The notes beneath the pieces are model-generated. The model ran no database searches and was not told where the DNA came from. It was given only the letters and a program-made list of their open reading frames with translations. From positions 1,696,001-1,760,000 of the forward strand of contig OX638340.1 of the NCBI GenBank assembly GCA_951812955.1: a stretch of 64,000 nucleotides of DNA, read 5' to 3'. Positions 3,121 to 27,333 of the stretch are shown here, piece after piece. The DNA is from an uncultured Gemmatimonadota bacterium (GTDB taxonomy: Bacteria > JAAXHH01). Positions within the stretch are counted from its first letter, which is position 1. Each line of letters opens with the position of its first letter. Position numbers and translations under genes: made by a program.

Positions 3121-4503
3121 ATGAGCGTATCCGAATCATCGAAACCTGAACTTCAGGATCCCGTACCCGCCATCCATCCGTCCGCGGGAAGCGTGAACCG
3201 AGTCTGGCTGCTGGCCTATCCGATCATCCTGGCCAACATGTCCGAGACCCTTCTGGGCGTGGTCGACACTTACATGGTCGGCCAGCTCGGCGTGGCTGAG
3301 ATCGGCGCCGTGGGTCTCGGGTCCATGCTCGCGTGGCTCTTCTACCTGCCGGTCCTGGGTCTGGCGATGGGGTTGAATACCTTCGTCGCCCAGAGCTACG
3401 GCGCCGGAAACCGGAAGGAATGCGGGTACATGACCTGGCAGGGGCTGTACATGGCCGTGGCAAGCGGCTTATTGATCCTGCTCGTCATCCCCTTCGTACC
3501 GCTTCTGTTCGATATCGCGGGACCTTCCGCAGAAGTTCGACGCCTGGGTGTCACCTACCTGCAGTGGCGCCTGATCGACGGCCCGGCCTTCATGGTCGCC
3601 ATGACGGCCGCCAGCTTCTTCCGCGGTATCGGCGATACGAAAACGCCGATGAAGATCGGCATAACCATCAATATCATCAACGTCATCCTGAATTACGGAC
3701 TGATCTACGGCAATTTCGGCCTGCCCCGCCTCGAAGTGCAGGGATCGGCCATCGGATCGGCGCTGGCCGGCATGCTGGGCGGAGGGATTTACCTCGTCCT
3801 GTTCCTGTCCAGACGACTGCATCCTTACGCCAACCGGACCGTTCCCCGGCCCCGGTGGCTGGACCAGGTCCGGCTTTTAAAGGTTGGCGCGCCGATCGGC
3901 CTGCAACGGTTCCTCGATATCGGCAGCTTCGTGATATTCGCCGCCTTCATCGGCAGATTGGGAAATGCCCAGCTGGCCGCGAACCAGATCGCCATCCAGC
4001 TGATGTCCATCTCGTACATGATCGGCCTGGGTATCGGCATGGCCGCTTCCACGCTCGTGGGCCAGTATATCGGCGCGAAACGCATCGAACTGGCCGAGCG
4101 CAGCGCATACAGCGCCTTGAAACTGGCCATGGGCATCATGGTTTTCATCGGCCTGTGCTTCCTGTTGTTCCCCGAGCCGCTCGTTTCACTTTTTAACGGC
4201 GACCCGGCCGTCATACGCTACGGAAGGCAGGGACTCTTGTTCGCGGCGCTCTTCCAGGCCTTCGACGCCCTCGCCGTCATATACATCGGCGCTCTTCGCG
4301 GCGCCGGCGACACCCGGTGGTCCGCCGTGGCCGCCTTCATAGGTGCATGGGTCATCTTCCTGCCAATGACCTACCTGTTCGCCTTCACGATGGGTCTGGA
4401 TTTCTGGGGGGCCTGGCTGAGTGCGACGATCTATATCTGTCTCCTCGGCATTGCCTGCGTTTACCGGTTCCGGCAGGGTGTATGGAAGCGGATGGTCATA
4501 TAG
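3121..4503 (+). CDS. MATE family multidrug/oligosaccharidyl-lipid efflux transporter
   Basis: 460 aa, 12 predicted TM helices. N-terminal LAYPIILANMSETLLGVVDTYMVGQLG motif and the internal two-fold repeat are characteristic of MATE/NorM-like pumps. Confidence 0.88.
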   Translation: MSVSESSKPELQDPVPAIHPSAGSVNRVWLLAYPIILANMSETLLGVVDTYMVGQLGVAEIGAVGLGSMLAWLFYLPVLGLAMGLNTFVAQSYGAGNRKECGYMTWQGLYMAVASGLLILLVIPFVPLLFDIAGPSAEVRRLGVTYLQWRLIDGPAFMVAMTAASFFRGIGDTKTPMKIGITINIINVILNYGLIYGNFGLPRLEVQGSAIGSALAGMLGGGIYLVLFLSRRLHPYANRTVPRPRWLDQVRLLKVGAPIGLQRFLDIGSFVIFAAFIGRLGNAQLAANQIAIQLMSISYMIGLGIGMAASTLVGQYIGAKRIELAERSAYSALKLAMGIMVFIGLCFLLFPEPLVSLFNGDPAVIRYGRQGLLFAALFQAFDALAVIYIGALRGAGDTRWSAVAAFIGAWVIFLPMTYLFAFTMGLDFWGAWLSATIYICLLGIACVYRFRQGVWKRMVI

Positions 4504-4539
4504 CAGAGCGTTTTTCAAATGCCGTTTTTCAACAAGGGA

Positions 4540-5610
4540 ATGGAGTGCCAAGTGTCCAATAAGAAGAAATGCCTGATGATCGGCGCCGGCGGCATGGCCG
4601 GCGGTTGGATTCGCAGTTTCTACCCGCGGTTCAAGGACCGGCACGAGATCGTCGCACTGGTGGATATCAACGCGGATATTCTCCACGACGCGGGGGATTT
4701 CCTGGGGCTTCCCCGGAGTCACAGGTACACGGACATGGAGAGCGCTTTCGGGGAGGTGGACGCGGACTACTGCACAATCGTCATTCCCCCGGCCGTTCAC
4801 CGGGACGCCGTGATGCTGGCGGTGGAGCATAAGCTGGACATCCTGAGTGAAAAACCGATTGCCGACACGTGGTCCGCATGCGTAGATATATACAGGGCGG
4901 TAATGGATGCCGGCCTGAAGATGCACGTGATTCAAAACTACCGCTATTCCAGCCGCATGCTGACGATGCGGCAGGTATTGCGAGACGGAGCGCTTGGACG
5001 GATCAACTACATCCAGGGCCGATTTGCCGCGGACTACCGGGAATACGGCGCCTGGGGCGCCTTCCGCTACGAAATACCGCACACCCTGCTCGTGGAAGGC
5101 GCCGTGCATCACTTTGACATGATGCGGAATCTTTCGGGGGGAGACTGCAAGACGATCGCCGGTTGGGAGTGGAACCGGCCGTGGAGCACCTTCCAGGGGG
5201 ATTGCTGCGCCATGTACGTGATGGATATGACCAACGGGGTGAAGGCGGCCTACGAGGGGTCGTGCCTGGGCGCCGCCGAACAGAACAGCTGGCACGGGGA
5301 GTACTACCGGGCGGAATGCGAAGAGGGTGCCGTCGCCATTGGAAGCGACGGGGTCACGCGCATGTATAGACATACGCCCGGAAAGGGTATGTGCGTCGAA
5401 GACGTCAGCCCCGTCGTTCCCGAATACGACGGACACCAATGGCAGATCAACGAGTTTCTCGACTGGATCGACGGGGGACCCGCACCCGATACATGCCTGG
5501 AGCACAACATCCGGAGCGTGGCCATGGTCTTCGCCGCCATCGAAGCTTCGAAGACAGGAGAGTCGATCGACGTGGAGGAAATGGTCGGGCAGGTCGTAAA
5601 CACCGCTTGA
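4540..5610 (+). CDS. Gfo/Idh/MocA family NAD(P)-dependent oxidoreductase (start uncertain: 4519, 4540 or 4576)
   Basis: N-terminal KKCLMIGAGGMAGGWI Rossmann strand followed by an EKP motif (LSEKPIA) and a C-terminal alpha/beta domain typical of the family. Confidence 0.8.
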   Translation: MECQVSNKKKCLMIGAGGMAGGWIRSFYPRFKDRHEIVALVDINADILHDAGDFLGLPRSHRYTDMESAFGEVDADYCTIVIPPAVHRDAVMLAVEHKLDILSEKPIADTWSACVDIYRAVMDAGLKMHVIQNYRYSSRMLTMRQVLRDGALGRINYIQGRFAADYREYGAWGAFRYEIPHTLLVEGAVHHFDMMRNLSGGDCKTIAGWEWNRPWSTFQGDCCAMYVMDMTNGVKAAYEGSCLGAAEQNSWHGEYYRAECEEGAVAIGSDGVTRMYRHTPGKGMCVEDVSPVVPEYDGHQWQINEFLDWIDGGPAPDTCLEHNIRSVAMVFAAIEASKTGESIDVEEMVGQVVNTA

Positions 5611-5722
5611 AGGAGAGAACGGGAACTGCCTGAAGGAGAAAACGGGAACTGCCGTTGACGGGGAGAAAGTGATTGGACCGGTGACGGGCGCCGCCTGAGA
5701 GAGGTACGGGTACCAAATTCAT

Positions 5723-6949
5723 ATGCAGAACCAGAAAATCCCTTTTATAAACGCATTTTTGAGACTGGAATCCGCCAGCGGCATTCTGCTGATGCTCGCG
5801 ACCGCCCTGGCCATGGTGTTCGCGAACTCGTTCCTCGAACCGCTCTATCATCGATTGCTGGAGATAGAGATCGAGATCCGCATCGCCGCCCTGGATATCA
5901 ACAAACCGCTGCTCCTCTGGATCAACGACGGTCTGATGACCATCTTCTTCTTCCTCGTGGGACTGGAATTGAAGCGGGAATTCCTCGAGGGCGAGCTGTC
6001 GAACCGGCGCAACATCATCCTGCCCGGCATCGGCGCCGTCGGCGGTATGGTGGTCCCCGCGCTGATCTATCTCCTCATCAACAGCGACGACCCCTCCGCC
6101 TGGCGGGGCTGGGCCGTCCCGGTCGCTACGGACATCGCCTTTACCCTGGGCGTATTGACCTTGTTGGGTACGCGCGTGCCCATTTCGATCAAGGTCTTCC
6201 TGACCTCGCTGGCCATCCTGGACGACATCGGCGCGATCTTGATCATCGCGGTATTCTACACGGCGGAAATTTCGATGACCGCCCTGATAGTGGCCGCGGG
6301 TTGCGTACTCGTGCTGGTCTTCCTGAACAACAGGAACTGGGTCTCCCACAGTTCGTACATGATGGTCGGCATAGTCCTCTGGATCGCCTTGCTTAAATCC
6401 GGAGTGCACGCAACGCTTGCGGGCGTGATCCTGGCCGCGTTCATCCCCATGCGTTCCAGGACCGACCCCGACGTCTCGCCACTCAAGATCCTGGAGCACG
6501 ATCTGCACACCGTCGTGGCCTTCGTCATCCTTCCCGTGTTCGCTTTCGCCAACTCCGGTGTCATGTTGAGCGGCATTACGGCCGAACAGGCGCTTCACGG
6601 CGTACCCGTCGGGGTCGCCCTCGGACTGTTCCTGGGCAAGCAGATCGGGATATTCGCACTGTGTTGGCTGTTCATCAAGATGAAAGTGGCCGCGCTGCCG
6701 AGGGGGATGTCCTGGGCTGGCCTCTATGGGGCAAGTACCCTGTGTGGGATCGGATTCACCATGAGCCTGTTCATCGGTTCGCTGGCCTTCGGCGAAACCG
6801 ATATTCACGCCATGTTCGACGAGCGGCTGGGGATCATCGTGGGATCGCTACTGTCGGGGGTGTTGGGCTATGCCATCCTCCGATACAGCCTGCCGCCCGC
6901 CGACAAGCCGGAAGAGGTCGTCGAGCAAGAGGTCGAGCAGGTGGTTTGA
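5723..6949 (+). CDS. nhaA: Na+/H+ antiporter NhaA
   Basis: 408 aa polytopic membrane protein. The FFFLVGLELKRE motif and the interrupted TM helices IV and XI (ATDIAF... / FANSGV) match NhaA. Confidence 0.9.
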   Translation: MQNQKIPFINAFLRLESASGILLMLATALAMVFANSFLEPLYHRLLEIEIEIRIAALDINKPLLLWINDGLMTIFFFLVGLELKREFLEGELSNRRNIILPGIGAVGGMVVPALIYLLINSDDPSAWRGWAVPVATDIAFTLGVLTLLGTRVPISIKVFLTSLAILDDIGAILIIAVFYTAEISMTALIVAAGCVLVLVFLNNRNWVSHSSYMMVGIVLWIALLKSGVHATLAGVILAAFIPMRSRTDPDVSPLKILEHDLHTVVAFVILPVFAFANSGVMLSGITAEQALHGVPVGVALGLFLGKQIGIFALCWLFIKMKVAALPRGMSWAGLYGASTLCGIGFTMSLFIGSLAFGETDIHAMFDERLGIIVGSLLSGVLGYAILRYSLPPADKPEEVVEQEVEQVV

Positions 6950-7152
6950 GGGGGATGATAGCAAAGATGACAGTTCATATATTCGAATTTAAGCATAAAC
7001 TGACTAGCATTCTCTACGTTGCAATTCCCAATTCATACACGCAAGCCTTACGCTGACCGGTCGTACATAGCTAGTTTGGAAAGGCACACATCTATCTAAC
7101 ACTTCACGATAGATCCATTTGGCCATTTCTGTAAGAAAACTGCAGTTTCTTT

Positions 7153-8835
7153 TTAGCTATTGGGCATAGATGTAGGATGTATCTGGTCAAGTGAAGTCTT
7201 AAAGTCCTTTATTTCATAAAGTATAAATCGATCCGCATCATTCAATAAACCACGTAAACGATTCCCATAGTCTATATCGAGATGTTTCTGGCCACCGTGT
7301 ATTATTGAGTGTATTAAAAAACTCCTCATGTATCCTTCATCACCACTTTCATTAAGACGACTGACTTCTCTAAGTACAACTTCGAACATTTCAACAATAA
7401 ACCTATACTCAAATCGCTCAGATTCCAAGATTGTGGCGAGACAAGTCCCAAGTGCAACTGCAGAAGACAAAGGGATGTTATCGTTTGGAAGTGACCAAGT
7501 ATTCCAATCAAGAATTACCCCGTTGTTTTGCTTTGGTAGGTTTCTATGGTGTGAGTCATCTGGTAATTCAGAAACTAGATGAATCCAACTACATAAAGTG
7601 CTTAATACCACATAAACCAATCTAGCCGATCGTGTTGGGAATTCGTCTGTAGTATCCACAGATGGATCAGACGAATCATAGGAACCTTCCAAAGCATCGA
7701 TAACAGACGTCATGTAATAAAGCCACATATGCCATGTAACACCCTGATAGGCTGCGGCTTTAACCATAAGGTCGAAAAACACAACTCCGACAAACACACC
7801 ATTCTCCCAACACTCATAATCGAATTCAACCGCAGTACCCTGTAAGTAATCTACAAAATCAGAAGACTTGTTTGGATTCAGTAACTGTAGGATATGCTTC
7901 CCAACCGGTTGCCATACTTCCAGTTGTAGCGCTATGTTTGCATTCGAAAAGAGAAAATACAAGAGACGATTGCTTACAGGAAACTCATAGCCATGTTGGT
8001 AAGAAATGTTCTGGTTGTATTGGATTTCTTGGTATAGAACGCTTCCTGTGTCAGCGATTAACAGGCTTAAGTATTTTTCAGAAAACTGACGACTACCAAA
8101 TATGTCCTGGTAAATCAGCGGAATCGCAAAGTACGGTCTATTTGTTGCGATATAAACCCGAAGTTCTTCGGACTGAAAAAACACGCGCGCGATGTTTTCC
8201 GCAGAATCTTGAGCACTGTACTGACTAGGTACAATAAACGCTAGTTTACCAAGCCATCGTCGCCCCACTTTAAACAAACCACTTCGATGTGTTGCTGCAG
8301 ATTGTGATTCCTGATCCAAAACCGTGTATCTTAATGCCGCAATATCTCCTTGCATGGCCCCCAAATTGTCATGATGTCGTTGTAAAAACAGCTTTCGATG
8401 TGATGCCTTCCCAATTACTGGTAAATAGGGTTCGATGAATTCAAGCAATTCAGAATACCGCTTTTCAAGCGATAACCGATCTACTATTCGAGCGATTCTT
8501 ACTAGCAAAAAGGACGAGAATAGCCTCGGGATGCTCAAGTGTATTACTATAGCAAAGATGATCCAAAACAAGACTACGAAAAAGGCAACACCGGAGGGAG
8601 AAAGTGGGCTGGATTCTTTGAAAACAATCCACGTGCATAAACTACCTAGAACAGCTGGGCAAGGTTGCCCAAAAACTTCGAAAAACTCAAGATAAACTAC
8701 TATGAAAAGCGAAACTAACGCTAGTGGGATCTGAAGGACAATGACCAGCTTAGCACGTAGTTTATCAACATGCGTGGCAAGTGTATATGCAGCTAGTACT
8801 AGAGTTAAGAATGTTAGAAAACCGTCTAGGGTCAT
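7153..8835 (-). CDS. Hypothetical membrane-anchored protein (~4 N-terminal TM helices plus a ~400-aa soluble domain), the only gene in an AT-rich island
   Basis: Long uninterrupted ORF (560 aa) in a ~2-kb segment of roughly 40% GC, flanked by ~65% GC genes. I recognise no family motifs. Confidence 0.6.
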   Translation of the reverse strand: MTLDGFLTFLTLVLAAYTLATHVDKLRAKLVIVLQIPLALVSLFIVVYLEFFEVFGQPCPAVLGSLCTWIVFKESSPLSPSGVAFFVVLFWIIFAIVIHLSIPRLFSSFLLVRIARIVDRLSLEKRYSELLEFIEPYLPVIGKASHRKLFLQRHHDNLGAMQGDIAALRYTVLDQESQSAATHRSGLFKVGRRWLGKLAFIVPSQYSAQDSAENIARVFFQSEELRVYIATNRPYFAIPLIYQDIFGSRQFSEKYLSLLIADTGSVLYQEIQYNQNISYQHGYEFPVSNRLLYFLFSNANIALQLEVWQPVGKHILQLLNPNKSSDFVDYLQGTAVEFDYECWENGVFVGVVFFDLMVKAAAYQGVTWHMWLYYMTSVIDALEGSYDSSDPSVDTTDEFPTRSARLVYVVLSTLCSWIHLVSELPDDSHHRNLPKQNNGVILDWNTWSLPNDNIPLSSAVALGTCLATILESERFEYRFIVEMFEVVLREVSRLNESGDEGYMRSFLIHSIIHGGQKHLDIDYGNRLRGLLNDADRFILYEIKDFKTSLDQIHPTSMPNS

Positions 8836-8933
8836 TTCAACAATCCTTCTCTTAGTAAATGGGTTTACTTCCAGTCAGGAACTCTAAAGAGCATATAAAA
8901 TAGAGTTTTTAAAAAGATCATATGGTTCTTTTA

Positions 8934-10100
8934 CTACGCTTTCTCCAACGCCTGGTCCAGATCGGCGATGATGTCGTCCGGGTCTTCCAGGCCCACCGAA
9001 ACGCGCGCTCTAAAACCGCCATCCGCGCTCTCGCCCGAGGGCAGGATCAACGTCTCCACATCGCCCAGACTATACCACGGCTTGCACATCTTTAGCCGGC
9101 CTAAAAAGCGGTCGAGCGAGACGCCGGGCTTGGAGACGAACCGCATCATTCCCCCAAAACCGTGCAGGTATCCGGTCGCGACCTCGTGATTCGGGTGTGA
9201 GGTCAGGCCCAGGTAGTCGACACGGGTGATCTTTTTGTGCTGGTCCAGGTACTCCGCCACCTTCTGGCCGCTGCCGCAGTGCCGCTCCATCCTGAAGGCC
9301 AGCGTCTTGAGGCCCCGGTGTACGAGGAAGGCGTTCATGGGCGCCAGCACGCCACCCATGAGGATCCGCATAAAATGTATCTGCTTCCTGATCTCTTCGT
9401 CGCGGCCGGAGACGATCCCGGCAAGGGCGTCACCGTGCCCGGCCATGTACTTCGTCATGGCGTGGAGGACCACGTCGGCGCCGTAGTGCAGAGGCCGCAG
9501 CAGGTAGGGCGATAGAAAGGTGTTGTCGACCACCACCAGGGCTCCAGCTTCATGGGCCATGTCCGTGGCGCGTGCTAGATCGATGAATTCCATGGAGTGG
9601 GCGTACGGTTCGAAATAGACCATCCTGGTCGGCTTTTTAAGCGCGGTTTCGAGTGCGTTCAGTTCGCACAGGTTTACCATCTGGACTTCCACGCCCCACT
9701 TCGTCGGCAGCACGTCCTGGAACAGCATGTGGGTCCCGGCATAAACGGTCTCGTGACAGACCACCCGGTCGCCGCTTTTAAGCAGGCCGAACAAGGTCTG
9801 GCTGACCGCCGACATGCCGCACGAGGTCGCCTGCGCCCACTCCGCGCCTTCGAGGATCCGCACCTGTTCTTCGAGCGCGCCGCTGGTGGGACCGCCCGCC
9901 TTGTCCAATCCCCGGCCGTAGGAGTTCGTCCCCTCGTAACCCTCGCGGTAGTTGGTGTTTCCCTGGTAGATCGGCACCGAAGACGACGTGCCATGGTACC
10001 CGCCGTGGATGGCGTCCGTGGTAAAATCCCGGTTGTCGGCCGACTGGTAGTCATCGGCTGCGAAACGGAGGTCGTTACGGAGGTCGTGGTTGTTGGGCAT
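8934..10100 (-). CDS. PLP-dependent trans-sulfuration family enzyme (cystathionine gamma-synthase / gamma-lyase / methionine gamma-lyase-like)
   Basis: Cys/Met-metabolism PLP family signatures: the TKYMAGHGD lysine motif, VVDNTFLSPY, and a C-terminal domain with VSLGDVETLI. Confidence 0.85.
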   Translation of the reverse strand: MPNNHDLRNDLRFAADDYQSADNRDFTTDAIHGGYHGTSSSVPIYQGNTNYREGYEGTNSYGRGLDKAGGPTSGALEEQVRILEGAEWAQATSCGMSAVSQTLFGLLKSGDRVVCHETVYAGTHMLFQDVLPTKWGVEVQMVNLCELNALETALKKPTRMVYFEPYAHSMEFIDLARATDMAHEAGALVVVDNTFLSPYLLRPLHYGADVVLHAMTKYMAGHGDALAGIVSGRDEEIRKQIHFMRILMGGVLAPMNAFLVHRGLKTLAFRMERHCGSGQKVAEYLDQHKKITRVDYLGLTSHPNHEVATGYLHGFGGMMRFVSKPGVSLDRFLGRLKMCKPWYSLGDVETLILPSGESADGGFRARVSVGLEDPDDIIADLDQALEKA

Positions 10101-10315
10101 AGTAAGAATCCCTCAGTTAAACACTACGGGGCTATGGTGGAGTCTGGACCAATGCAGAACCAGTGGACAAACAGATCGAGAAAGAACCCGGGTTCTTGAC
10201 TGGTTTAAGGTAAATGGGGGTTAAAGGGGGTCAAGCCATATCAGTCGTGCTTCGTGGGATGTCGAGATCATGATTCCACGCTATATCATTCAGGTTATTA
10301 CGATTTCATTCGGCA

Positions 10316-10350
10316 TTAACGTTTGACGTTAATAACACGTAACGTTATTA
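10316..10350. promoter_or_regulatory. Two adjacent inverted repeats (TTAACGT-N3-ACGTTAA and TAATAAC-N7-GTTATTA) in the AT-rich leader of the XRE-kinase operon; putative operator
   Basis: Read directly from the sequence ~75 bp upstream of the XRE gene start. Type II TA and XRE operons are commonly autoregulated through such palindromes. Confidence 0.4.
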
Positions 10351-10426
10351 TTGTATTAGCATGATGATATCGTTCAAAGACCATTTTCGTACAGTCGAAC
10401 TTGTCGATTACCATTAGGAGTCAGAT

Positions 10427-10732
10427 ATGCCTTCCGACTTGATGCACCCAATTCATCCCGGTGAGATCCTCAAGGAAGAGTTTCTGGAACCATTAGGCCT
10501 GAGTCAGTATCGTGTCGCTGTGGACATTTCAGTTCCACCGCGCCGTATAAACGAAATCGTTCACGGCAAACGCTCTATATCCGCTGACACGGCATTACGG
10601 CTGGCACGCTATTTCGGAACTACGGATCGTTTCTGGCTGAACCTACAGACACACTACGACCTGGAGAAGGAAAGAGATCGCTTAGGAAATCGATTGGAGA
10701 CCGAGGTACTTGTACTGGAGCGATCGAACTGA
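10427..10732 (+). CDS. HigA-family XRE helix-turn-helix antitoxin-like regulator (orphan: no HigB upstream)
   Basis: 101 aa. MHPIHPGEILKEEFLEPLGLSQ ... ISADTALRLARYFGTTDRFWLNLQ is the canonical HigA/VapI HTH signature. Confidence 0.85.
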   Translation: MPSDLMHPIHPGEILKEEFLEPLGLSQYRVAVDISVPPRRINEIVHGKRSISADTALRLARYFGTTDRFWLNLQTHYDLEKERDRLGNRLETEVLVLERSN

Positions 10733-10746
10733 AGCCGCAAAAGTTT

Positions 10747-11751
10747 ATGTCTCAACACCCGGCATCTCTTACCAAACTACTGCACAAAGCCAGTATTAAG
10801 CGCGGGGGCATTCGATGCGTAGAACCGATCGGCGATGGCGTAACCAACCGGACCCTATTGGTTACTCTGAAGGACGGCAAGCGCTACGTCCTACGCGAAT
10901 ACGATTGGCCTTACCCTTCAAGTGATAATCTCCAAAGACTCGATAAAGAGGTTTATCTACACAATCTGCTTCTAAAATACGATGTACCGGTTCCGTCCAT
11001 CGTTGCCAGTCACGACGATGGAAGTAACTGTGCCGTGCTGATGGAGTATATGCCAGGATTGCTTCTTGGAAATGTTGTAGATACCCTGACTGAAGTACAA
11101 CGGGCTCAAGCCTGGCGGGCTGCCGGAACAGCTTTACGGAATGTTCATTCGATCCGGCTGCTTGATGGCTGTTCGGGCGTGATCGTCGGTGAGCGCGTCC
11201 AGCCTTTTGAAGAAGGATCCTGGGGAGACTTTCATTTCCATCAGGCTATACAGCATGCGAATCACCTACTGAAGCGGGATGTGGGATTGCATTTCGACCT
11301 GCCGTCGATGAAGAACGTATTGAAACAGGCGGTTCCCCTGCTGAACGAATCTCCGGTGGTCCTGCTGCACAACGACCCCCATCCCTGGAATGTGCTTGTT
11401 AACGAGGTAGCCGGCCATTGGACCTGTTCAGCATGGCTTGACTGGGAATACGCCTGGTCAGGAGACCCGGTCTGGGACCTTGTTCGGACCGATCTGTTCC
11501 GGTTGAAACGGATCGGTCCCACGCCGGACGCCTTCTACGAGGGATATGGCGCTTTCCCTCGAGAACCGAATCGAAGTATCTACGAACTTTCCATTAACCT
11601 TTGGATGGCCGACCAGTACCTGGATGGAGAAATAGACGAGGAACGGGTACTCATGCCCACCTACGAGGCGGCGATGCAGTACCTGGGCCGGATCGACGAA
11701 GCGGTGGTAAGGATCGGAAACGAGCTTGAAAGGGCTGACCGGCTGCCTTGA
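10747..11751 (+). CDS. APH/choline-kinase-fold phosphotransferase (protein-kinase-like superfamily)
   Basis: Brenner motif LLHNDPHPWNVLV and the D-x-E metal loop WLDWEYAWSGDPVWDL (Pfam APH-like). Starts 15 nt after the XRE gene stop. Confidence 0.8.
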   Translation: MSQHPASLTKLLHKASIKRGGIRCVEPIGDGVTNRTLLVTLKDGKRYVLREYDWPYPSSDNLQRLDKEVYLHNLLLKYDVPVPSIVASHDDGSNCAVLMEYMPGLLLGNVVDTLTEVQRAQAWRAAGTALRNVHSIRLLDGCSGVIVGERVQPFEEGSWGDFHFHQAIQHANHLLKRDVGLHFDLPSMKNVLKQAVPLLNESPVVLLHNDPHPWNVLVNEVAGHWTCSAWLDWEYAWSGDPVWDLVRTDLFRLKRIGPTPDAFYEGYGAFPREPNRSIYELSINLWMADQYLDGEIDEERVLMPTYEAAMQYLGRIDEAVVRIGNELERADRLP

Positions 11752-21182: not shown

Positions 21183-21324
21183 CCCACCGAGACGCCGAGC
21201 AATCCGCGATCATCGCGCCCCACACCGAATTGCCGAGCAGTCCGCGATCATCGCGCGTCACACCGAAACGCCGAGCAGTCCGCGGCCACCGCGCGTCACA
21301 CCGAGACGCCGAGCAGTCCGCGAG
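21183..21324. repeat. Tandem repeat of a ~38-bp unit (caccgaRacgccgagcaRtccgcgRYcaYcgcgcgt), ~3.7 copies
   Basis: Read directly. Units are contiguous with no spacers. The array overlaps the last codons and the 3' flank of the UxaA-family gene. Confidence 0.85.
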
Positions 21325-24037
21325 TAATTTGGAAATCCGTGTTGCCGAGGGCCTCGGCCCGGGGCGTATGAATACTGGCGGCCGTGCGTCGGATCAGGTC
21401 CAGGATGTCTTTCCGCTGTGCCTCCGGTCCACCTTCCAGGATGTGGTCCACGTCTTCGCGGAAAGGTCCGGGCAGGTCCTCCGCACCGACCAGGAGTACT
21501 GGAATCATGGGATGGCCGGGCAGTGGATGGCTGCCGACCCCAGCGACGACCAGCTCCACGCCGGAAGCGCCCAGCCCGGTCATGGTCTCCACCCAGTGCG
21601 TAGTCTGTGACTCCATGACGTGCAGCCCGGGCACGGTAAAAGGTTCGCCATAGGCCAAAGTAGGCTTTGCCGGTCCGTCCGCCAGGTGACGCACGAAGGA
21701 CGGATGACCAAGCAACGCCGAGTTGTCCGGCACGACGACCGTTCCACCCTCGCTTACGACATCGAGGATCAGCCGTGAAAGCGCTTCGGAAAGGTCATCG
21801 GAGAGCGGATCGGCCGCGGACACACCCAGCCTGAGATCGGACAGACCGGTATTGCCCGCGACAGGACCATCGCAATCTTCCAGGGTCTCGGCGAACCAGG
21901 TTTCGATGCGATCGATTGCCTTTTCGATACCGCCATCGAGCTGTACGCTGGCCCAGCCGAATCCCGCTGGATCTATGCCGCGGTCCAGCAACTGCTGCCG
22001 ATAGAAGTCGTTGTGCGTGCGTTCGCAGCCATGCTCCAGAAGCAGGGCGGCCCCCGTCATCGGGTGGGTCAGGTAGCCGGTCATGGTGCGGATGTACATC
22101 TCCTCCGACACGCCGCCCGATACGCCGCACCCCTCGGTGTGTACCAGGGTGACGAATCGGGATATGCCGGCCCCGCACCCAACACCTTTCGCACTCAGCC
22201 GCTCCGCGGCCATCCGGGCGATCTGTCCGGAGCACAGGCTGGTGGGTAGAATCAGGCCGACGCGGTCTGTGGCGAGGTTTCCGTTCACTTCGTACATGGG
22301 CAGTTCGAAAGGCGGTGGAGGCGTCGACGCCTCGTTCGAGCGGACCGCCAGCGGTTCTCCCATCGGCGCTGGCCTGTCGCGGAGGACCTGCAGCCGACTC
22401 CCGTCTGTCTGGCGCCAGTCGCGCCAGATCTGGGTCTGGCTGTGACCCGCCTTTTCGCCGCGGGTCAGTTCGCCCGAGGCCGTTCGCAATGTCAGGTCAA
22501 GAGTCCTTCGTCCCAGTTCGTCCATGGATTCGCCGTCCAGGTAGGCGCCGGCGTTGACGTCCATTTCGCCCGAAAGCATTTCGTACCGTTTCGTAGTCGT
22601 CACGATTTTGATCGTAGGGACAAAAGGAAAGTTGGTGATGGATCCGTTGCCGGTTATGAAGAAGATGACATTGCCGCCGGACGCTACCTGGCCGGCGATA
22701 GCTTCCAGGTCGTTGCCGGGACTGTCCATGAAGTAGTACCCCGGCTCCTTCATCGGTACCGCGTAGTCGATGGCGTAGTCGAGTCGTACGTCGGGGTGGC
22801 GCTTCCGGGCCGCGCCGATGGATTTGAGCACGATGTTGTAAATCCCCCTGAGCTTGTTGCCCCCGGAGGGGTTGGCATCCACCGACTGGCCATGCCACGC
22901 CGTTCGCTCCTGGAAACGCTCGATCATGTGGAGGAACGTGCGGGCCGTCTCGATATCCCGGACATTCTGCAGCACATAGGGTTCGCCGCCGATGAGCTCG
23001 TCAGTTTCGGCAAGACTGGCCTTGCCTCCGAAGCGGATGATCTCCCGTGCGACGAGCGCGGCCAGCGGATTGCCCGATATGCCCGAAAACGAATCCGAAC
23101 CACCGCACTGAAGCACGATGTTGAGATGGGACGCGGAAGCCGGCATCCGTGCGACGCGGTTAACCGTCTCGAACCAGCCGGTGACGAACCTCGCACTACG
23201 CTCAAGTTCCTCGTCAAATCCGCCTTTGAGCGTTTCAAAACGGTGCAGCACCTCGTTCAGCGGATAGCCGTTAAGCCGCATGTAGTTTTCCAGCATCCGG
23301 TCCGTCACGATTTCTGTTCCGCGGTCCACCGCGTAGACCGCACCCACATTGGGATGGACCATGAAGCCCGCCAGCGTCCGCAGCACCAGTTCCCGGTTAT
23401 TGGGGTCCACCCCGGCGCCGCCCTCGGTATGTGCCACGGCCACGACGCCATCTATATTCGGATACCGTTCCACCTTTTCCTTCAGTCTGGATTCCAGCCG
23501 CCGCACGAATCCTGCCGTCTGCGACGTAATGCCCAGGAGGACGATGAAGTTCCGGGTTCCGACGCCCCGCGCCTTCCCTCTGTCATATCCATCGAAGGTC
23601 GGAGGCTTGTCGCTGACAGGAATCTGCTCGCCCGGTGTGAAGGTGGATTCGTCCAGCTCGTAGGGTACCACGCGGTCTTCGAAGTTCGGCTGATCCGGGA
23701 GGGCGAAATCTACCTGCCGTACGCGGAGGGCGTTGAGAATGTCGCCGTTGCAGATGTAATCGCCCGGCGCGATGTCCCGGGTCGCCCGTCCGAAAGGCTG
23801 TCCCCAGGACAGGACGTACTCCCCGGCAGGTATGGCCCGGATGGCGAAACGATGCCCTTCCAGCAGTGAATGGGCGACGGAAAAGGAGTTGCCGGTTTCG
23901 TTGGCAACGCGCGTGCCGGCCTCCAGCCTTCGGGACACGATGGCCACGTTGTCGCCGGGTTCGGCAAGGCGCGCAATGTCTTTCAGGCGGCAGACGGACA
24001 CGATGCCAGGATCCTTGCTGTTAGCATATCTAACCAT
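21296..24037 (-). CDS. UxaA-family (altronate / galactarate dehydratase-like) protein with an internal tandem duplication: SAF domain + Cys-less dehydratase copy + second Cys-containing dehydratase copy
   Basis: 913-aa continuous ORF. Contains an N-terminal SAF domain and a first dehydratase module with the GD_AH_C signatures (CGGSDSFSGISGNP, FFITGNGS, HSQTQIWRDWRQ) but no Cys in the iron-site region. A second module has the Cys ligands (LILPTSLCSGQIA, HTEGCGVSGG, LEHGCE) and ends with FQITRG. Confidence 0.75.
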   Translation of the reverse strand: MVRYANSKDPGIVSVCRLKDIARLAEPGDNVAIVSRRLEAGTRVANETGNSFSVAHSLLEGHRFAIRAIPAGEYVLSWGQPFGRATRDIAPGDYICNGDILNALRVRQVDFALPDQPNFEDRVVPYELDESTFTPGEQIPVSDKPPTFDGYDRGKARGVGTRNFIVLLGITSQTAGFVRRLESRLKEKVERYPNIDGVVAVAHTEGGAGVDPNNRELVLRTLAGFMVHPNVGAVYAVDRGTEIVTDRMLENYMRLNGYPLNEVLHRFETLKGGFDEELERSARFVTGWFETVNRVARMPASASHLNIVLQCGGSDSFSGISGNPLAALVAREIIRFGGKASLAETDELIGGEPYVLQNVRDIETARTFLHMIERFQERTAWHGQSVDANPSGGNKLRGIYNIVLKSIGAARKRHPDVRLDYAIDYAVPMKEPGYYFMDSPGNDLEAIAGQVASGGNVIFFITGNGSITNFPFVPTIKIVTTTKRYEMLSGEMDVNAGAYLDGESMDELGRRTLDLTLRTASGELTRGEKAGHSQTQIWRDWRQTDGSRLQVLRDRPAPMGEPLAVRSNEASTPPPPFELPMYEVNGNLATDRVGLILPTSLCSGQIARMAAERLSAKGVGCGAGISRFVTLVHTEGCGVSGGVSEEMYIRTMTGYLTHPMTGAALLLEHGCERTHNDFYRQQLLDRGIDPAGFGWASVQLDGGIEKAIDRIETWFAETLEDCDGPVAGNTGLSDLRLGVSAADPLSDDLSEALSRLILDVVSEGGTVVVPDNSALLGHPSFVRHLADGPAKPTLAYGEPFTVPGLHVMESQTTHWVETMTGLGASGVELVVAGVGSHPLPGHPMIPVLLVGAEDLPGPFREDVDHILEGGPEAQRKDILDLIRRTAASIHTPRAEALGNTDFQITRGLLGVSV

Positions 24038-24083: not shown

Positions 24084-25334
24084 CTACGTATCTTTGGAGA
24101 GCATCAACTGGATTTTGGGATGGAGATGGCTAACAAGCCTATTCAAGTGATCCCTCATCCAGGAAACAGCGTTCTCGAAATCCGGGGTTTCCCCTTCTTG
24201 TGACAGAAACGACATATCACAGTCCAGATAAAACCCAATTCTTGGTCTATCGGCCGTGTTGTACCACTGGTCGAGGTTATTACCAAGTACTTTTTTAAGA
24301 TCCTCAAACGAGGCATTGATTTCTTCAAAGATCCTGACTTCTCGAGTCTGGTTTTTACGAACTGTAAGATAGCATCCGATTGCCCCGTTTTGTCGGTACA
24401 GATAACCCACAAAACTCAATGCCCAACCGTTGAATGATGAATTCTTTACTGGTAAATATAGAGTTGGATCTTTAGGTGGTTTGGGCCATAACTCAGTCAG
24501 TGAATCTATGGTTGAATCCGAAAACGAGAAATCTTTCAAAACTGCATTCCAAAATCGCAGGTTTTCCTTTTCATATGGTGATTCTTGATAATCATCATCA
24601 CTAGATTCGTCCAGGTCTGCAGGTACGACAGCTCCATTATCACTCTCAATTACGAAACGTCGTACGATTTCAGTACGCGCAAGTACACGAGGATGAACAA
24701 ACAGATTGTGGGCTTTATCGCGGTAAAGGGCCGCTTCCACTAGTGCCAGGTTGAAGTGTAATCCACTGTGGCGCTGTACGAAATCTACTATGTTTTCCAC
24801 ACCTTCCCGAATACCATCGCCAACTATCAATAGTAGGAATTCCCCGCGTTTCAGGTGACGTGAGACATTGTCAACGAATTCAGCTTCATTCAGGTTTGAT
24901 TTTTCTTTACGCACTTTTACGTAGAGAACATTCCCATTCATGCCGGTATTCAGAGATACTTCACGTTGCAAATCTTCGTAATCCCACGAAGCTACTTCCT
25001 TCGTGTAGTCGAGTATTTGGCCAATAACCTCTCGCCGTGCCTGCTGGTTACGCCAGAGTTTGAACTCAACTAGTACAAGTTTTCCTAAGTGGTTTGCGTA
25101 TAACGCGTCTAAGTATCCAGCATTAGTATTCAACTCTCGACAGATTGGAACTAATCCTTCGTATGCAGGATCGATGGCTGTTATTGGTAGAGCTTGTGGA
25201 TGACAAAAAAGAAGCTTTTGTAGCTTTTCTTCGTAAATGCTCCCGTCAGATACTCCAGTATCAAGTGGGACACGAGTTACAACTTCTGGATCTTCGTCTT
25301 CGACATTATTCACAATGATCAGTTTATCTGACAT
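24084..25334 (-). CDS. PD-(D/E)xK nuclease-fold protein (NucS/DUF91-like N-terminal domain plus an uncharacterised C-terminal domain), the only gene in an AT-rich island
   Basis: AGYLDALYANHLGKLVLVEFKLW...REVIGQILDYT matches the D...(E)xK...QxxxY core of RecB/NucS-like nucleases. About 42% GC versus ~65% in the flanks. Confidence 0.55.
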   Translation of the reverse strand: MSDKLIIVNNVEDEDPEVVTRVPLDTGVSDGSIYEEKLQKLLFCHPQALPITAIDPAYEGLVPICRELNTNAGYLDALYANHLGKLVLVEFKLWRNQQARREVIGQILDYTKEVASWDYEDLQREVSLNTGMNGNVLYVKVRKEKSNLNEAEFVDNVSRHLKRGEFLLLIVGDGIREGVENIVDFVQRHSGLHFNLALVEAALYRDKAHNLFVHPRVLARTEIVRRFVIESDNGAVVPADLDESSDDDYQESPYEKENLRFWNAVLKDFSFSDSTIDSLTELWPKPPKDPTLYLPVKNSSFNGWALSFVGYLYRQNGAIGCYLTVRKNQTREVRIFEEINASFEDLKKVLGNNLDQWYNTADRPRIGFYLDCDMSFLSQEGETPDFENAVSWMRDHLNRLVSHLHPKIQLMLSKDT

Positions 25335-25601
25335 TTACACACTCCAAATTTTGTCACGATTACAGATCCTGATACTTCCTTGCGCCAAAAGTATCTGAAG
25401 TAGATTTCAAATTTCGACACTTTCAGGCCATTCTTGTATTGAGAACGTAATTGATGAAATCCTCGATTCCCGGACTGGCAAGGTACCACTCGCCCCGACT
25501 CCGTGTCAAAGGTAATTCGGCGGCCGCCGATCCGCCCGCCGGATGCCGCGAGCGGCACAGTTGACGCTGCGGCCGAACGGTGTACATTGTCTTCCGGACT
25601 T

Positions 25602-25694
25602 GGTTCGTCTCACGGGCCGGACGCGGTTTCGTCTCACGGACCATTCACGGTTTCATCTCAATCGACGGTCGCGGTTTCATCCAGCGGAACCCCT
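25602..25694. repeat. Four direct repeats with exact 23-bp periodicity (core cGGTTTCrTCTCA) ~50 bp upstream of the following gene; putative regulator-binding sites
   Basis: Core copies start at 25602, 25625, 25648 and 25671, read directly. Confidence 0.6.
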
Positions 25695-25740
25695 CGCTTC
25701 CAGATTCCGATCCAGAACATCCGCCAGCCGGAGGTCCAAA

Positions 25741-27333
25741 ATGCTTGTAGGGTACGTCAGCGACGAACGATATGTTGCCATTCCTGAAGTCCTGCTCGAA
25801 TTCGAAGCCGGCGGGGAATCCATCGAAGCGCGCTCGCGGGCTACGGGGGCGGTCTACGCGGACGTAACGCCCGGACGGGAATACAGGGTCACGCTGGCAT
25901 GCAGGGATTTCGGATTCAAGAGCGTGTACATGACACCGCGCGAAGACCAACCCTACCATTTCCGGCTGTTGCGGGACGACCTGCTGGGCTACATGTGGCC
26001 CAAGTGGGTCCGTACCGGGGAGAAATCGGAATTCCGCGTGCACGCCGTGGAGGCCTACCAGTTGGAACTCTACCGCTACGGATGGAAGAAGGAATACATC
26101 CGGAACATCGGCTGGTACGACGAGCACGGCCCCCGCGCCACGATGCAGATCACGCCCGATGGCGATTACACGCGGTCCGGGGTGAAGTGGAACACCCAGG
26201 GCTATACCAATCCCGCCCACAAACAATACATCGAGGCGCCGGAACGGTCCGGCCTGTACTACCTGCACGCTTCCACTGAGAACGGCGGTTTCTTTTCCTT
26301 CCCCTGGATCGTCGCACCGGCCGCGCCGTCAGCCGACGTCGCCGTACTGGCCGCCAACATCAACTGGAACGCCTACAACAACTTCGGGGGCCGTAGCAAT
26401 TACATCCACGCCGACGAGTTTCCGCCGACCCCCACGGTCAACGCCCGCTACGACCTGAAGCGGTACACCGATCCCTCGCACCGGATGTACAGCGCGGAAG
26501 ACTATGCGCCGCTCTCCTTCGACCGGCCGGAACCGATAAACCACGTTCCCGAGGACGACGAAGCGATGGACATGATCGCGGGTCGCGCGGCGTGCCACGT
26601 CGCGCCCGCGGAGTGGCGTTACCTGGCCTGGATGGAACGGGAGGGATTCGGCTACGACCTATATGCGGAGACGCAGTTCCATGACGGCACGCTGCCCCTT
26701 GACCGGTACCGGGTGCTGATCACCACTACCCACCCGGAATACTGGTCGAAGGACATGTATTTCCGGCTCAAGGCCTGGGTATTCGAATCAGGTGGCAGGC
26801 TCATGTATCTGGGCGGCAATGGCCTGAATTGCGAGGTCGTGTTCGTCGACGAGTACACCATGAAGGTCATGAACGGCAACATCGATTCTCTCGACCGGCC
26901 AGGGGTGGGCATTGAAAGCCGTTTCAACATCTACAACGAATCGGAAGCCAACCTGCTCGGCGTCGCCTTCACGCGGACGGGGATCATGACCAGCGCGCCT
27001 TACCGCGTGATCGACGCAGGCCACTGGGTCTTCGAAGGTACCGGGGTACAGGAAGGAGATATCTTCGGCGAAGCCAGCCTGCACGAACGGGTCCCCGGCG
27101 GCGCGTCGGGACACGAGACCGACAAGATTACCCCGAGTTCACCGCCGAACACCCACCTGATCGCCAAGGGCACCAACGTGGATGATGGCGGCGCCGAGAT
27201 GGTCGTGCATGAGACGGAAAGCGGCGGGATGGTCTTCTCGGCGGGATCGATCACCTATCCGTCGTCGATCCTCGTCGACGACGTGGTGTCGCGGGTCACG
27301 TCCAACGTGCTGAAGCGGTTTCTGGTGGACTGA
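25741..27333 (+). CDS. Large hydrolase-like protein, tentatively N,N-dimethylformamidase large-subunit-like (DUF6605-type)
   Basis: 530 aa with high coding GC3. Family assignment is from memory of motifs (INWNAYNNFGG, YRVLITTTHPEYWS) and is not verified. Confidence 0.45.
   Translation: MLVGYVSDERYVAIPEVLLEFEAGGESIEARSRATGAVYADVTPGREYRVTLACRDFGFKSVYMTPREDQPYHFRLLRDDLLGYMWPKWVRTGEKSEFRVHAVEAYQLELYRYGWKKEYIRNIGWYDEHGPRATMQITPDGDYTRSGVKWNTQGYTNPAHKQYIEAPERSGLYYLHASTENGGFFSFPWIVAPAAPSADVAVLAANINWNAYNNFGGRSNYIHADEFPPTPTVNARYDLKRYTDPSHRMYSAEDYAPLSFDRPEPINHVPEDDEAMDMIAGRAACHVAPAEWRYLAWMEREGFGYDLYAETQFHDGTLPLDRYRVLITTTHPEYWSKDMYFRLKAWVFESGGRLMYLGGNGLNCEVVFVDEYTMKVMNGNIDSLDRPGVGIESRFNIYNESEANLLGVAFTRTGIMTSAPYRVIDAGHWVFEGTGVQEGDIFGEASLHERVPGGASGHETDKITPSSPPNTHLIAKGTNVDDGGAEMVVHETESGGMVFSAGSITYPSSILVDDVVSRVTSNVLKRFLVD

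Follow-up and report, generated by a model that had tools for sequence, protein, structure and literature searches.

What kind of gene can occupy, on its own, an AT-rich island between two convergent core genes of a bacterial chromosome, how did it get there, and might it serve in defense against mobile genetic elements (MGE)? These questions are raised by a stretch of 64,000 nucleotides from an uncultured Gemmatimonadota bacterium (assembly GCA_951812955.1, contig OX638340.1, positions 1,696,001 to 1,760,000; hereinafter, the window, with positions counted from its first letter), in which a single protein of 560 amino acids (aa) is encoded between nhaA and a gene for a pyridoxal phosphate (PLP)-dependent enzyme. 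Our analysis demonstrates that the island is horizontally acquired cargo in a recombination hotspot between these two genes, that its gene is an intact and functional, stand-alone accessory gene, and that the encoded protein belongs to an undescribed family with a wide but sparse distribution, whose genes always stand alone. The best overall explanation, which we favor tentatively and with somewhat less than even confidence, combines acquisition of cargo at a hotspot with a role of the product as a stand-alone inner-membrane anti-phage or anti-MGE factor.

Acquired cargo in a hotspot between convergent core genes

The island (positions 6950–8933, 1984 bp) has a GC content of 0.403, the lowest of any 2-kb segment of the window (median 0.602, standard deviation 0.046). 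The original prediction, made from the sequence alone, had the GC content fall from about 65% to about 40% at this point; the fall is real, to 0.38–0.44 across the island, but it starts from approximately 0.60 in the surroundings rather than 0.65. The GC content at third codon positions (GC3) of the island gene is 0.36, compared to about 0.8 for the flanking genes, so that the composition of the island departs from that of the host. On one side lies nhaA, a core gene for a Na+/H+ antiporter (5723–6949, plus strand; Na_H_antiport_1, E=8e-147), and on the other side, in convergent orientation, the core gene for a PLP-dependent enzyme of Cys/Met metabolism (8934–10100, minus strand; E=3e-98). In agreement with the assignment of the host, for each of five core proteins encoded in the window there are relatives, at least 90% identical, from metagenome-assembled genomes that NCBI lists under Gemmatimonadota.

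The history of the site became apparent when it was compared among related genomes in which this PLP gene cluster also occurs (loci L001, L070, L072–L075, L081–L083, and L085). In L081 and L083, the site is empty, with the stop codons of the two core genes only 15 bp apart (CAGGGCTGCCCGGCC), and it is this spacer that the island replaces in the window. In L072–L075 and L082, the same position holds a 584-bp cargo that includes a 78-aa open reading frame (ORF). The window contains the 560-aa gene only, whereas homologues of this gene are accompanied by further cargo in the other occupied sites: L001 carries a 564-aa homologue along with an ORF of the 78-aa type, an IS3 element and an N6/N4 methylase; L070 carries a 538-aa homologue together with a KilA-N/BstA_C protein and IS1595; and L085 carries a 509-aa homologue next to a transposase fragment. 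Homology between the window and L072/L073 breaks precisely at the stop codons (window positions 6951 and 8935), and the same boundaries are seen at the junctions in L081 and L083. Thus, the prediction that a single gene of foreign composition had been inserted between convergent housekeeping genes is borne out by the syntenic comparison that it called for, in which the junction in relatives is empty, otherwise filled, or occupied by divergent alleles.

It had been allowed at the outset that the presence of this gene, with a similar GC content, at the corresponding locus of related genomes would argue against such an insertion. Homologues do reside at the locus in L001, L070, and L085, and the GC content of the L001 allele is 0.43. 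However, these alleles, found in the more distant relatives, are only 54–71% identical to the window protein, as opposed to 88–90% for the flanks, and the closest relatives lack the gene. At the amino acid level, NhaA is 96% identical to its L072 counterpart and 88% to that of L001, and the PLP-dependent enzyme is 95% and 89% identical, respectively. Between the window and L001, the flanking core genes (88–90% aa identity) show synonymous divergence (dS) of 0.45–0.62 and nonsynonymous divergence (dN) of 0.054–0.075, in contrast to the island gene (54% aa identity), for which dS is saturated (proportion of synonymous differences, pS, 0.79) and dN is 0.354, with the caveat that, in this pair of genomes, genes with lower GC3 give somewhat higher dS (0.94 for a helix-turn-helix, or HTH, gene). 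This disparity implies that the alleles diverged long before their hosts did. Low identity among alleles, saturated synonymous sites and absence of the gene from the closest relatives together point to a long-lived variable hotspot rather than to vertical inheritance of a housekeeping gene. The divergence points either to an ancient polymorphism that recombination in the flanks has shuffled, or to acquisition of the gene on repeated occasions. Comparison of the island gene with the closer L070 allele yields a dN/dS ratio of approximately 0.14, and hence the gene evolves under purifying selection.

These observations bear directly on the possibility that the gene encodes a vertically inherited housekeeping membrane protein of odd composition, for which the homologues that occupy this site in L001, L070, and L085 could be invoked, or that the ORF is non-functional. 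Both versions are exceedingly improbable, and we reject them in view of the empty sites and the dN/dS value: the sites of the closest relatives that lack the gene are precisely empty, the island gene is far more divergent than its flanks, and the family is patchy across phyla and present on mobile elements, whereas decay into a pseudogene is contradicted by the dN/dS ratio as well as by the confident fold described below. Moreover, homology to a known housekeeping membrane protein, which the original prediction named as a finding that would speak against it, was not detected in searches of Pfam, NCBIfam, and the Protein Data Bank (PDB).

The island contains a single long ORF, as predicted (7153–8835, minus strand), which is co-directional with the PLP gene and starts 98 bp past the stop codon of the latter. 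The AT-rich leader between this stop codon and the ATG (8836–8933, minus strand) includes a Shine-Dalgarno motif, GAAGGA (8844–8849), 8 nt 5′ of the start codon; it is recognisably homologous to the leaders in the occupied sites of L001 and L070, and no such homology exists in the empty sites. Downstream of the ORF is an AT-rich, 203-bp non-coding tail (6950–7152), for which sequence comparison detected no homology to the cargo of the relatives. The island in the window contains no mobility gene, integrase, partner ORF, tRNA gene or target, attachment (att) sites or flanking direct repeats, and no convincing target-site duplication or terminal repeats were found at its ends. An Rfam scan of the window returned no RNA family, and scans for promoters and terminators produced matches at chance level only. 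The island has probably moved between genomes through recombination of homologous flanks, and insertion sequence (IS) elements or transposases are present in the allelic islands of L001, L070, and L085.

The concept of variable regions located between conserved core genes has been applied to the hotspots of P2 and P4 (PMC9122126). The PLP–nhaA site resembles chromosomal defense hotspots in that it has fixed core flanks between which it is empty, filled with other cargo, or occupied by divergent alleles, and in that the cargo includes a methylase, a BstA-like gene, and IS elements. It differs from such hotspots in being located between the stop codons of convergent housekeeping genes and, in the window, in lacking an integrase, a tRNA gene, and att repeats.

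Several features of this site and its surroundings deserve mention in their own right. The cargo of L072 (9156–9739), also present in L073–L075 and L082, consists of the 78-aa ORF, which has no Pfam match and which has an 85-aa counterpart in L001 (11814–12071). By eye, a second small frame can be read 5′ of the 78-aa ORF, apparently frameshifted in L072 (MADFELVGEITNIQ... / ...VELHWYEGHGVGKLEIKRKRYL), and the two might form a small two-gene module. The KilA-N/BstA_C protein of L070 (3038–3844), assigned to the BstA-type abortive-infection family by precomputed Pfam matches, is encoded in the PLP–nhaA hotspot two genes downstream of the homologue that is 71% identical to the window protein. 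The far side of the PLP gene varies as well. In the window, the region 10050–11751 (GC content 0.42–0.50) encodes a HigA-like protein with the HTH_3 domain (10427–10732) and an APH-family phosphotransferase (10747–11751); the HTH gene is missing in L081 and L082, an extra HIT-family gene is present beyond the APH/HTH position in L082 and L001, and in L072 a protein of more than 2400 aa, with RHS/YD-shell features, takes the place of the genes of this region. A second low-GC patch (GC content 0.43 over 1 kb) contains a 416-aa ORF without a Pfam match (24084–25334, minus strand), between a galactarate/altronate dehydratase-like gene (21296–24037) and a DMFA2_C-family gene (25543–27333), and may be another orphan insertion. 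The long antisense ORFs of up to 453 aa (e.g., 4186–5505 and 5447–6808 on the minus strand, and 9597–10199 on the plus strand) are the usual high-GC artefact over GC-rich genes.

An undescribed, widely but sparsely distributed family

The absence of familiar motifs in the soluble part of the protein, noted from the sequence at the outset, was confirmed by database searches, with no match in Pfam, NCBIfam, or PADLOC. Extension of the Pfam search to 41 diverse members of the family yielded only three weak matches, each to a single member (best E=0.004), a profile search of PDB sequences found nothing (E ≥ 0.23), and profile searches with distant members recovered the same set again, without fused or annotated domains. 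The only named relative of the window protein is phrog_13820 (PHROGs v4), which is matched over the full length (aa 6–548 against profile positions 12–495 of 505, E=1.8e-28) and lacks functional annotation. This match agrees with tblastn matches to genes of Escherichia coli Shiga toxin (Stx) prophages and Klebsiella phage-plasmids. The window protein, however, belongs to a distant environmental branch, being 20–25% identical to the enterobacterial members, and its gene is chromosomal rather than phage-borne.

The 90% database contains 63 clusters of the family, and 613 were obtained at 50% identity. Full-length members, of approximately 480–610 aa, share one architecture; we considered and rejected the existence of members with swapped N-terminal effector modules because the apparent variants retain the transmembrane (TM) module and differ only in the length of the linker. 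The family spans many phyla, with representatives in, among others, Alpha- and Gammaproteobacteria, Acidobacteriota, Binatia, Opitutales, Elusimicrobiota, Ignavibacteriales, Latescibacterota, Sumerlaeota, Cyanobacteria, and Pirellulaceae, with each cluster typically found on one to three contigs. In 45 of the 68 loci, the GC content of the family gene is below that of its flanks, by 6.5 points on average and by 28 points in the most extreme case, in Aeromonas tecta. Two groups of members are at least 85% identical across genera, within surrounding elements that are largely common, namely, L019–L023 in Sphingomonas, Pseudorhizobium, Sphingobium, and Novosphingobium, and L037, L039, and L061 in Idiomarina, Nitrincola, and Pseudomonas (including P. 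saudimassiliensis). Such levels of identity imply recent inter-genus transfer.

The observation that the island gene has neither partners nor mobility genes holds beyond the window. All-against-all BLAST comparison of 64 loci revealed no conserved neighbor, and clusters are held in common only within near-identical elements; the small ORFs upstream of the family gene in L002, L003, and L071 are not related to one another. Judging by this lack of a conserved partner, the family gene probably works alone. Locus L071, a 25,519-bp contig (ena:ERZ25067264:ctg771629), encodes a member that is 49% identical to the window protein (P0009) and may also encode a distant paralogue (P0062, 31% identical), given that the longest contig listed for either protein measures 25,519 bp. 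Upstream of P0009, at a distance of 165 bp, is a HicB-like gene that shows 92% conservation in the Binatia locus L006.

Many members of the family are carried by MGE. In lambdoid/Stx prophages of E. coli, a homologue of 515–517 aa (WP_000501170.1) is encoded at the prophage end, with the ea22/DUF551 region on one side and the integrase on the other; of 5426 complete genomes, 35 contain this homologue, in every case under the annotation "hypothetical". Phage-plasmids of Klebsiella, about 110 kb in size, encode a 529-aa homologue in an accessory region, near an integrase, the YafO toxin, and PhoH. Further homologues are found on plasmids of Agrobacterium, Rhizobium, Sinorhizobium, and Sphingomonas, one of which adjoins a Tn3 element, an integrase, and a DUF4433 protein, and another (L080), genes for a 1158-aa methyltransferase along with a UvrD/AAA gene pair.

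Carriage on prophages, phage-plasmids, and plasmids, combined with fast divergence, would also be expected of a factor working for the mobile element and not for its host, by counter-defense, competition between elements, or as an addiction-type toxin, and toxin-antitoxin-like neighbors are indeed found, including the HicB-like gene of L071, YafO in L078, and the HigA-like HTH gene near the island of the window. Nevertheless, the genes of the window and L085 persist without a surrounding element, there is no conserved cognate antitoxin or other partner, and a lone membrane toxin is not expected to be stably kept under purifying selection; we therefore regard such a role as quite improbable.

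Architecture of the protein and a candidate mode of action

An AlphaFold2 model built on an alignment of 54 sequences is all-helical and confident (predicted local distance difference test score, pLDDT, 85.9; predicted template modeling score, pTM, 0.82), and consists of an N-terminal membrane module followed by an α-solenoid. The structure prediction and fold search that had been proposed for this protein thus produced a clear model of three TM helices plus a solenoid, along with no specific match: Foldseek comparison to the PDB and BFVD returned nothing at E < 1e-3 (best E ≥ 0.046). The fold is a helical-repeat one, and only generic helical repeats match it, at no more than 16% identity and mostly 5–12%. 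The protein is similar to HEAT/ARM-type α-solenoids in architecture and does not belong with them as a family, given that none of the 41 members has a HEAT, ARM, or TPR match in Pfam.

The membrane module (aa 1–105; 8521–8835, minus strand) contains three hydrophobic TM helices, at aa 3–20, 30–50, and 81–103, rather than the approximately four anticipated from the sequence. The N-terminus, MTLDGF, is near-invariant, with D4 present in all 52 sequences that reach it; E50 is found in 81% of the alignment. The mean conservation of the module, 0.59, is level with that of the soluble domain (0.53–0.68). Between the second and third helices lies loop 2, predicted to be periplasmic (aa 51–80; 8596–8685, minus strand), with a near-invariant pair of cysteines, C59 (53 of 54 sequences) and C67 (54 of 54). 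Loop 1 contains 2.7 lysine or arginine residues and almost no aspartate or glutamate, loop 2 is net acidic, and the segment that follows the third helix is rich in lysine and arginine. By the positive-inside rule, the N-terminus would be located outside, and loop 1 and the C-terminus inside, leaving a short periplasmic loop that might be disulphide-bonded.

The predicted cytoplasmic part (aa 106–560; 7156–8520, minus strand) is an all-helical α-solenoid domain of approximately 450 aa, larger than the approximately 400 aa originally estimated. It includes a variable linker (aa 151–200; 8236–8385, minus strand), with a conservation of 0.36, pLDDT of 53–71, and varying length, and a core (aa 346–420; 7576–7800, minus strand) that is the most conserved region of the protein, at 0.68. 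The core displays the pattern FFDLMV..AA.QGV.WHMWLYY ... YD.S.P.VD...EFPTRSARL, in which H369, M370, W371, E398, and P400 are kept even in the homologues from E. coli and Klebsiella.

From this architecture and the genomic context, we infer a sensor-plus-membrane-effector mechanism, a specific proposal that is possible but that we hold with considerable doubt. The cytoplasmic α-solenoid would act as the sensor, with a surface including the WHMWLYY/EFPTR core recognising an invader protein or another cue of infection. The three-TM module, which appears too conserved for a mere anchor, would be the effector, with D4 and E50 as membrane-embedded acidic residues; upon activation, it might permeabilise or depolarise the membrane, resulting in an arrest resembling abortive infection (Abi).

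The closest rival to this sensor-effector reading is superinfection or entry exclusion, whereby an inner-membrane protein prevents the translocation of DNA arriving from a phage or by conjugation and leaves the cell unharmed, acting through the periplasmic Cys-pair loop or through a membrane-proximal cytoplasmic scaffold. The inner-membrane anchor and the conserved periplasmic loop are compatible with such a function, as are the integrase-adjacent accessory position in temperate prophages of E. coli, the carriage on phage-plasmids and conjugative plasmids, and the stand-alone character of the gene. Known exclusion proteins, such as P22 SieA, T4 Imm, HK97 gp15, and TraS/Eex, are small. A simple plug would leave the conserved 450-aa cytoplasmic solenoid unexplained, and many copies of the gene, including that in the window, are chromosomal, without phage or conjugation genes nearby; exclusion is, accordingly, an unlikely function.

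Among the known single-gene membrane-acting proteins of prophages and plasmids that mediate Abi or exclusion are RexB, the lactococcal membrane-anchored Abi proteins of the AbiP type, and P22 SieA. The similarity is one of functional analogy: the family gene likewise stands alone, encodes an N-terminal anchor, is AT-rich, and resides on mobile elements, in variable accessory slots such as that adjoining the prophage integrase. However, no relationship to any of these proteins was detected at the level of sequence or fold, and they have no counterpart of the large α-solenoid or of the periplasmic Cys-pair loop. KwaA of the Kiwa system, like other TM components of defense systems, also contains a small multi-pass TM module tied to defense islands, and in one locus the distance between the KwaA gene and a gene of the family is less than 3 kb. 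Yet, no PADLOC model of KwaA matches the window protein, and Kiwa requires the partner KwaB, whereas the family lacks a partner.

Neighborhoods and function

The earlier suggestion that the island gene is a stand-alone Abi or defense gene receives circumstantial support from its carriage on mobile elements and from its defense-related neighbors, with the qualification that no known defense family matches the protein. Upx is encoded 172 bp upstream of the family gene in L062, PDC-S06 approximately 630 bp upstream in L016, and IetA/IetS approximately 1.2 kb downstream in L026; in L047, the family gene adjoins a C5-methylase. Other loci include, within 3 kb, a class I prokaryotic Argonaute (pAgo) with its Aga nuclease partner, KwaA, PD-Lambda-2_B, and a CBASS-type E2. 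A MmeI-like restriction-modification gene and a serine recombinase are found near the family gene in L002, and a DUF4062 protein with IS elements, in L084. Altogether, 115 PADLOC families were recorded near the family gene (within 3 kb) compared to 63 in a distal set (6.5–10 kb); these counts are a descriptive comparison, and many of the models are redundant. On balance, this context speaks for the gene being some kind of defense or exclusion factor, which we consider probable by a modest degree.

A number of observations weigh against an immune function. None of the 5027 models in PADLOC-DB v2.0.0 matches the window protein at E ≤ 1, and no recognisable enzymatic or pore-forming domain was identified, either in the window protein (Pfam and NCBIfam) or in the 41 members compared to Pfam. 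Because the fold matches generic helical repeats only, architecture and context provide the entire basis of the proposed mechanism. The distal set of neighbors also contained some defense genes, mostly methylases and reverse transcriptases, and in the comparison of near and distal neighbors by Pfam, mobile-element genes appeared in both, too heterogeneous for enrichment. In many loci, L003 and L071 among them, the adjacent genes are ordinary metabolic ones, and many loci are devoid of defense neighbors. The subfamily of the alphaproteobacterial type was not found among the viral contigs of IMG/VR, and searches of the literature for WP_000501170.1, phrog_13820, and a single-gene system combining TM and HEAT elements found nothing. 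In addition, no match for WP_000501170.1 was found in the DefensePredictor supplements.

Several of these points are what one would expect of an accessory membrane protein with no part in immunity, such as a factor of envelope or stress adaptation, a membrane scaffold or regulator, or a factor of element maintenance, that hitch-hikes in variable regions. Such a protein would have no similarity to defense families and would occur in heterogeneous neighborhoods with metabolic genes among them; furthermore, α-solenoids are generic protein-binding scaffolds, and variable hotspots collect non-defense cargo too. What makes this explanation, although quite possible, the less probable one in our assessment is that the gene repeatedly adjoins different bona fide defense systems in different genera, that it occupies the integrase-adjacent position in prophages, and that it combines highly divergent alleles at one site, turnover, and saturated dS with persistently low GC content, all typical of conflict genes.

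If the immunity reading fails, what is left is still a clean orphan accessory family with a confident, novel-looking membrane and solenoid architecture. Many orphan candidates of this kind exist; the present one stands out by its confident structure, broad distribution, and clean hotspot history. The novelty, as we see it, lies in an unrelated new family within a known kind, that of stand-alone, MGE-borne membrane immunity or accessory genes. In its broadest form, which we advance as a conjecture and with clear reservations, the family would be a widespread single-protein immune system, extending from Gemmatimonadota to prophages of E. coli, in which a solenoid sensor is hard-wired to a three-TM effector and the divergent alleles at the hotspot are kept by phage-driven frequency-dependent selection. 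The homologue in the Stx/lambdoid prophages of E. coli makes the family directly testable in a model host. If the proposal is correct, this would be a new single-gene family of membrane-acting immunity, without homology to catalogued systems and spread over at least a dozen phyla, and the PLP–nhaA site would represent an integrase-less defense hotspot between the stop codons of convergent housekeeping genes, of a type that would escape island finders guided by mobility genes.

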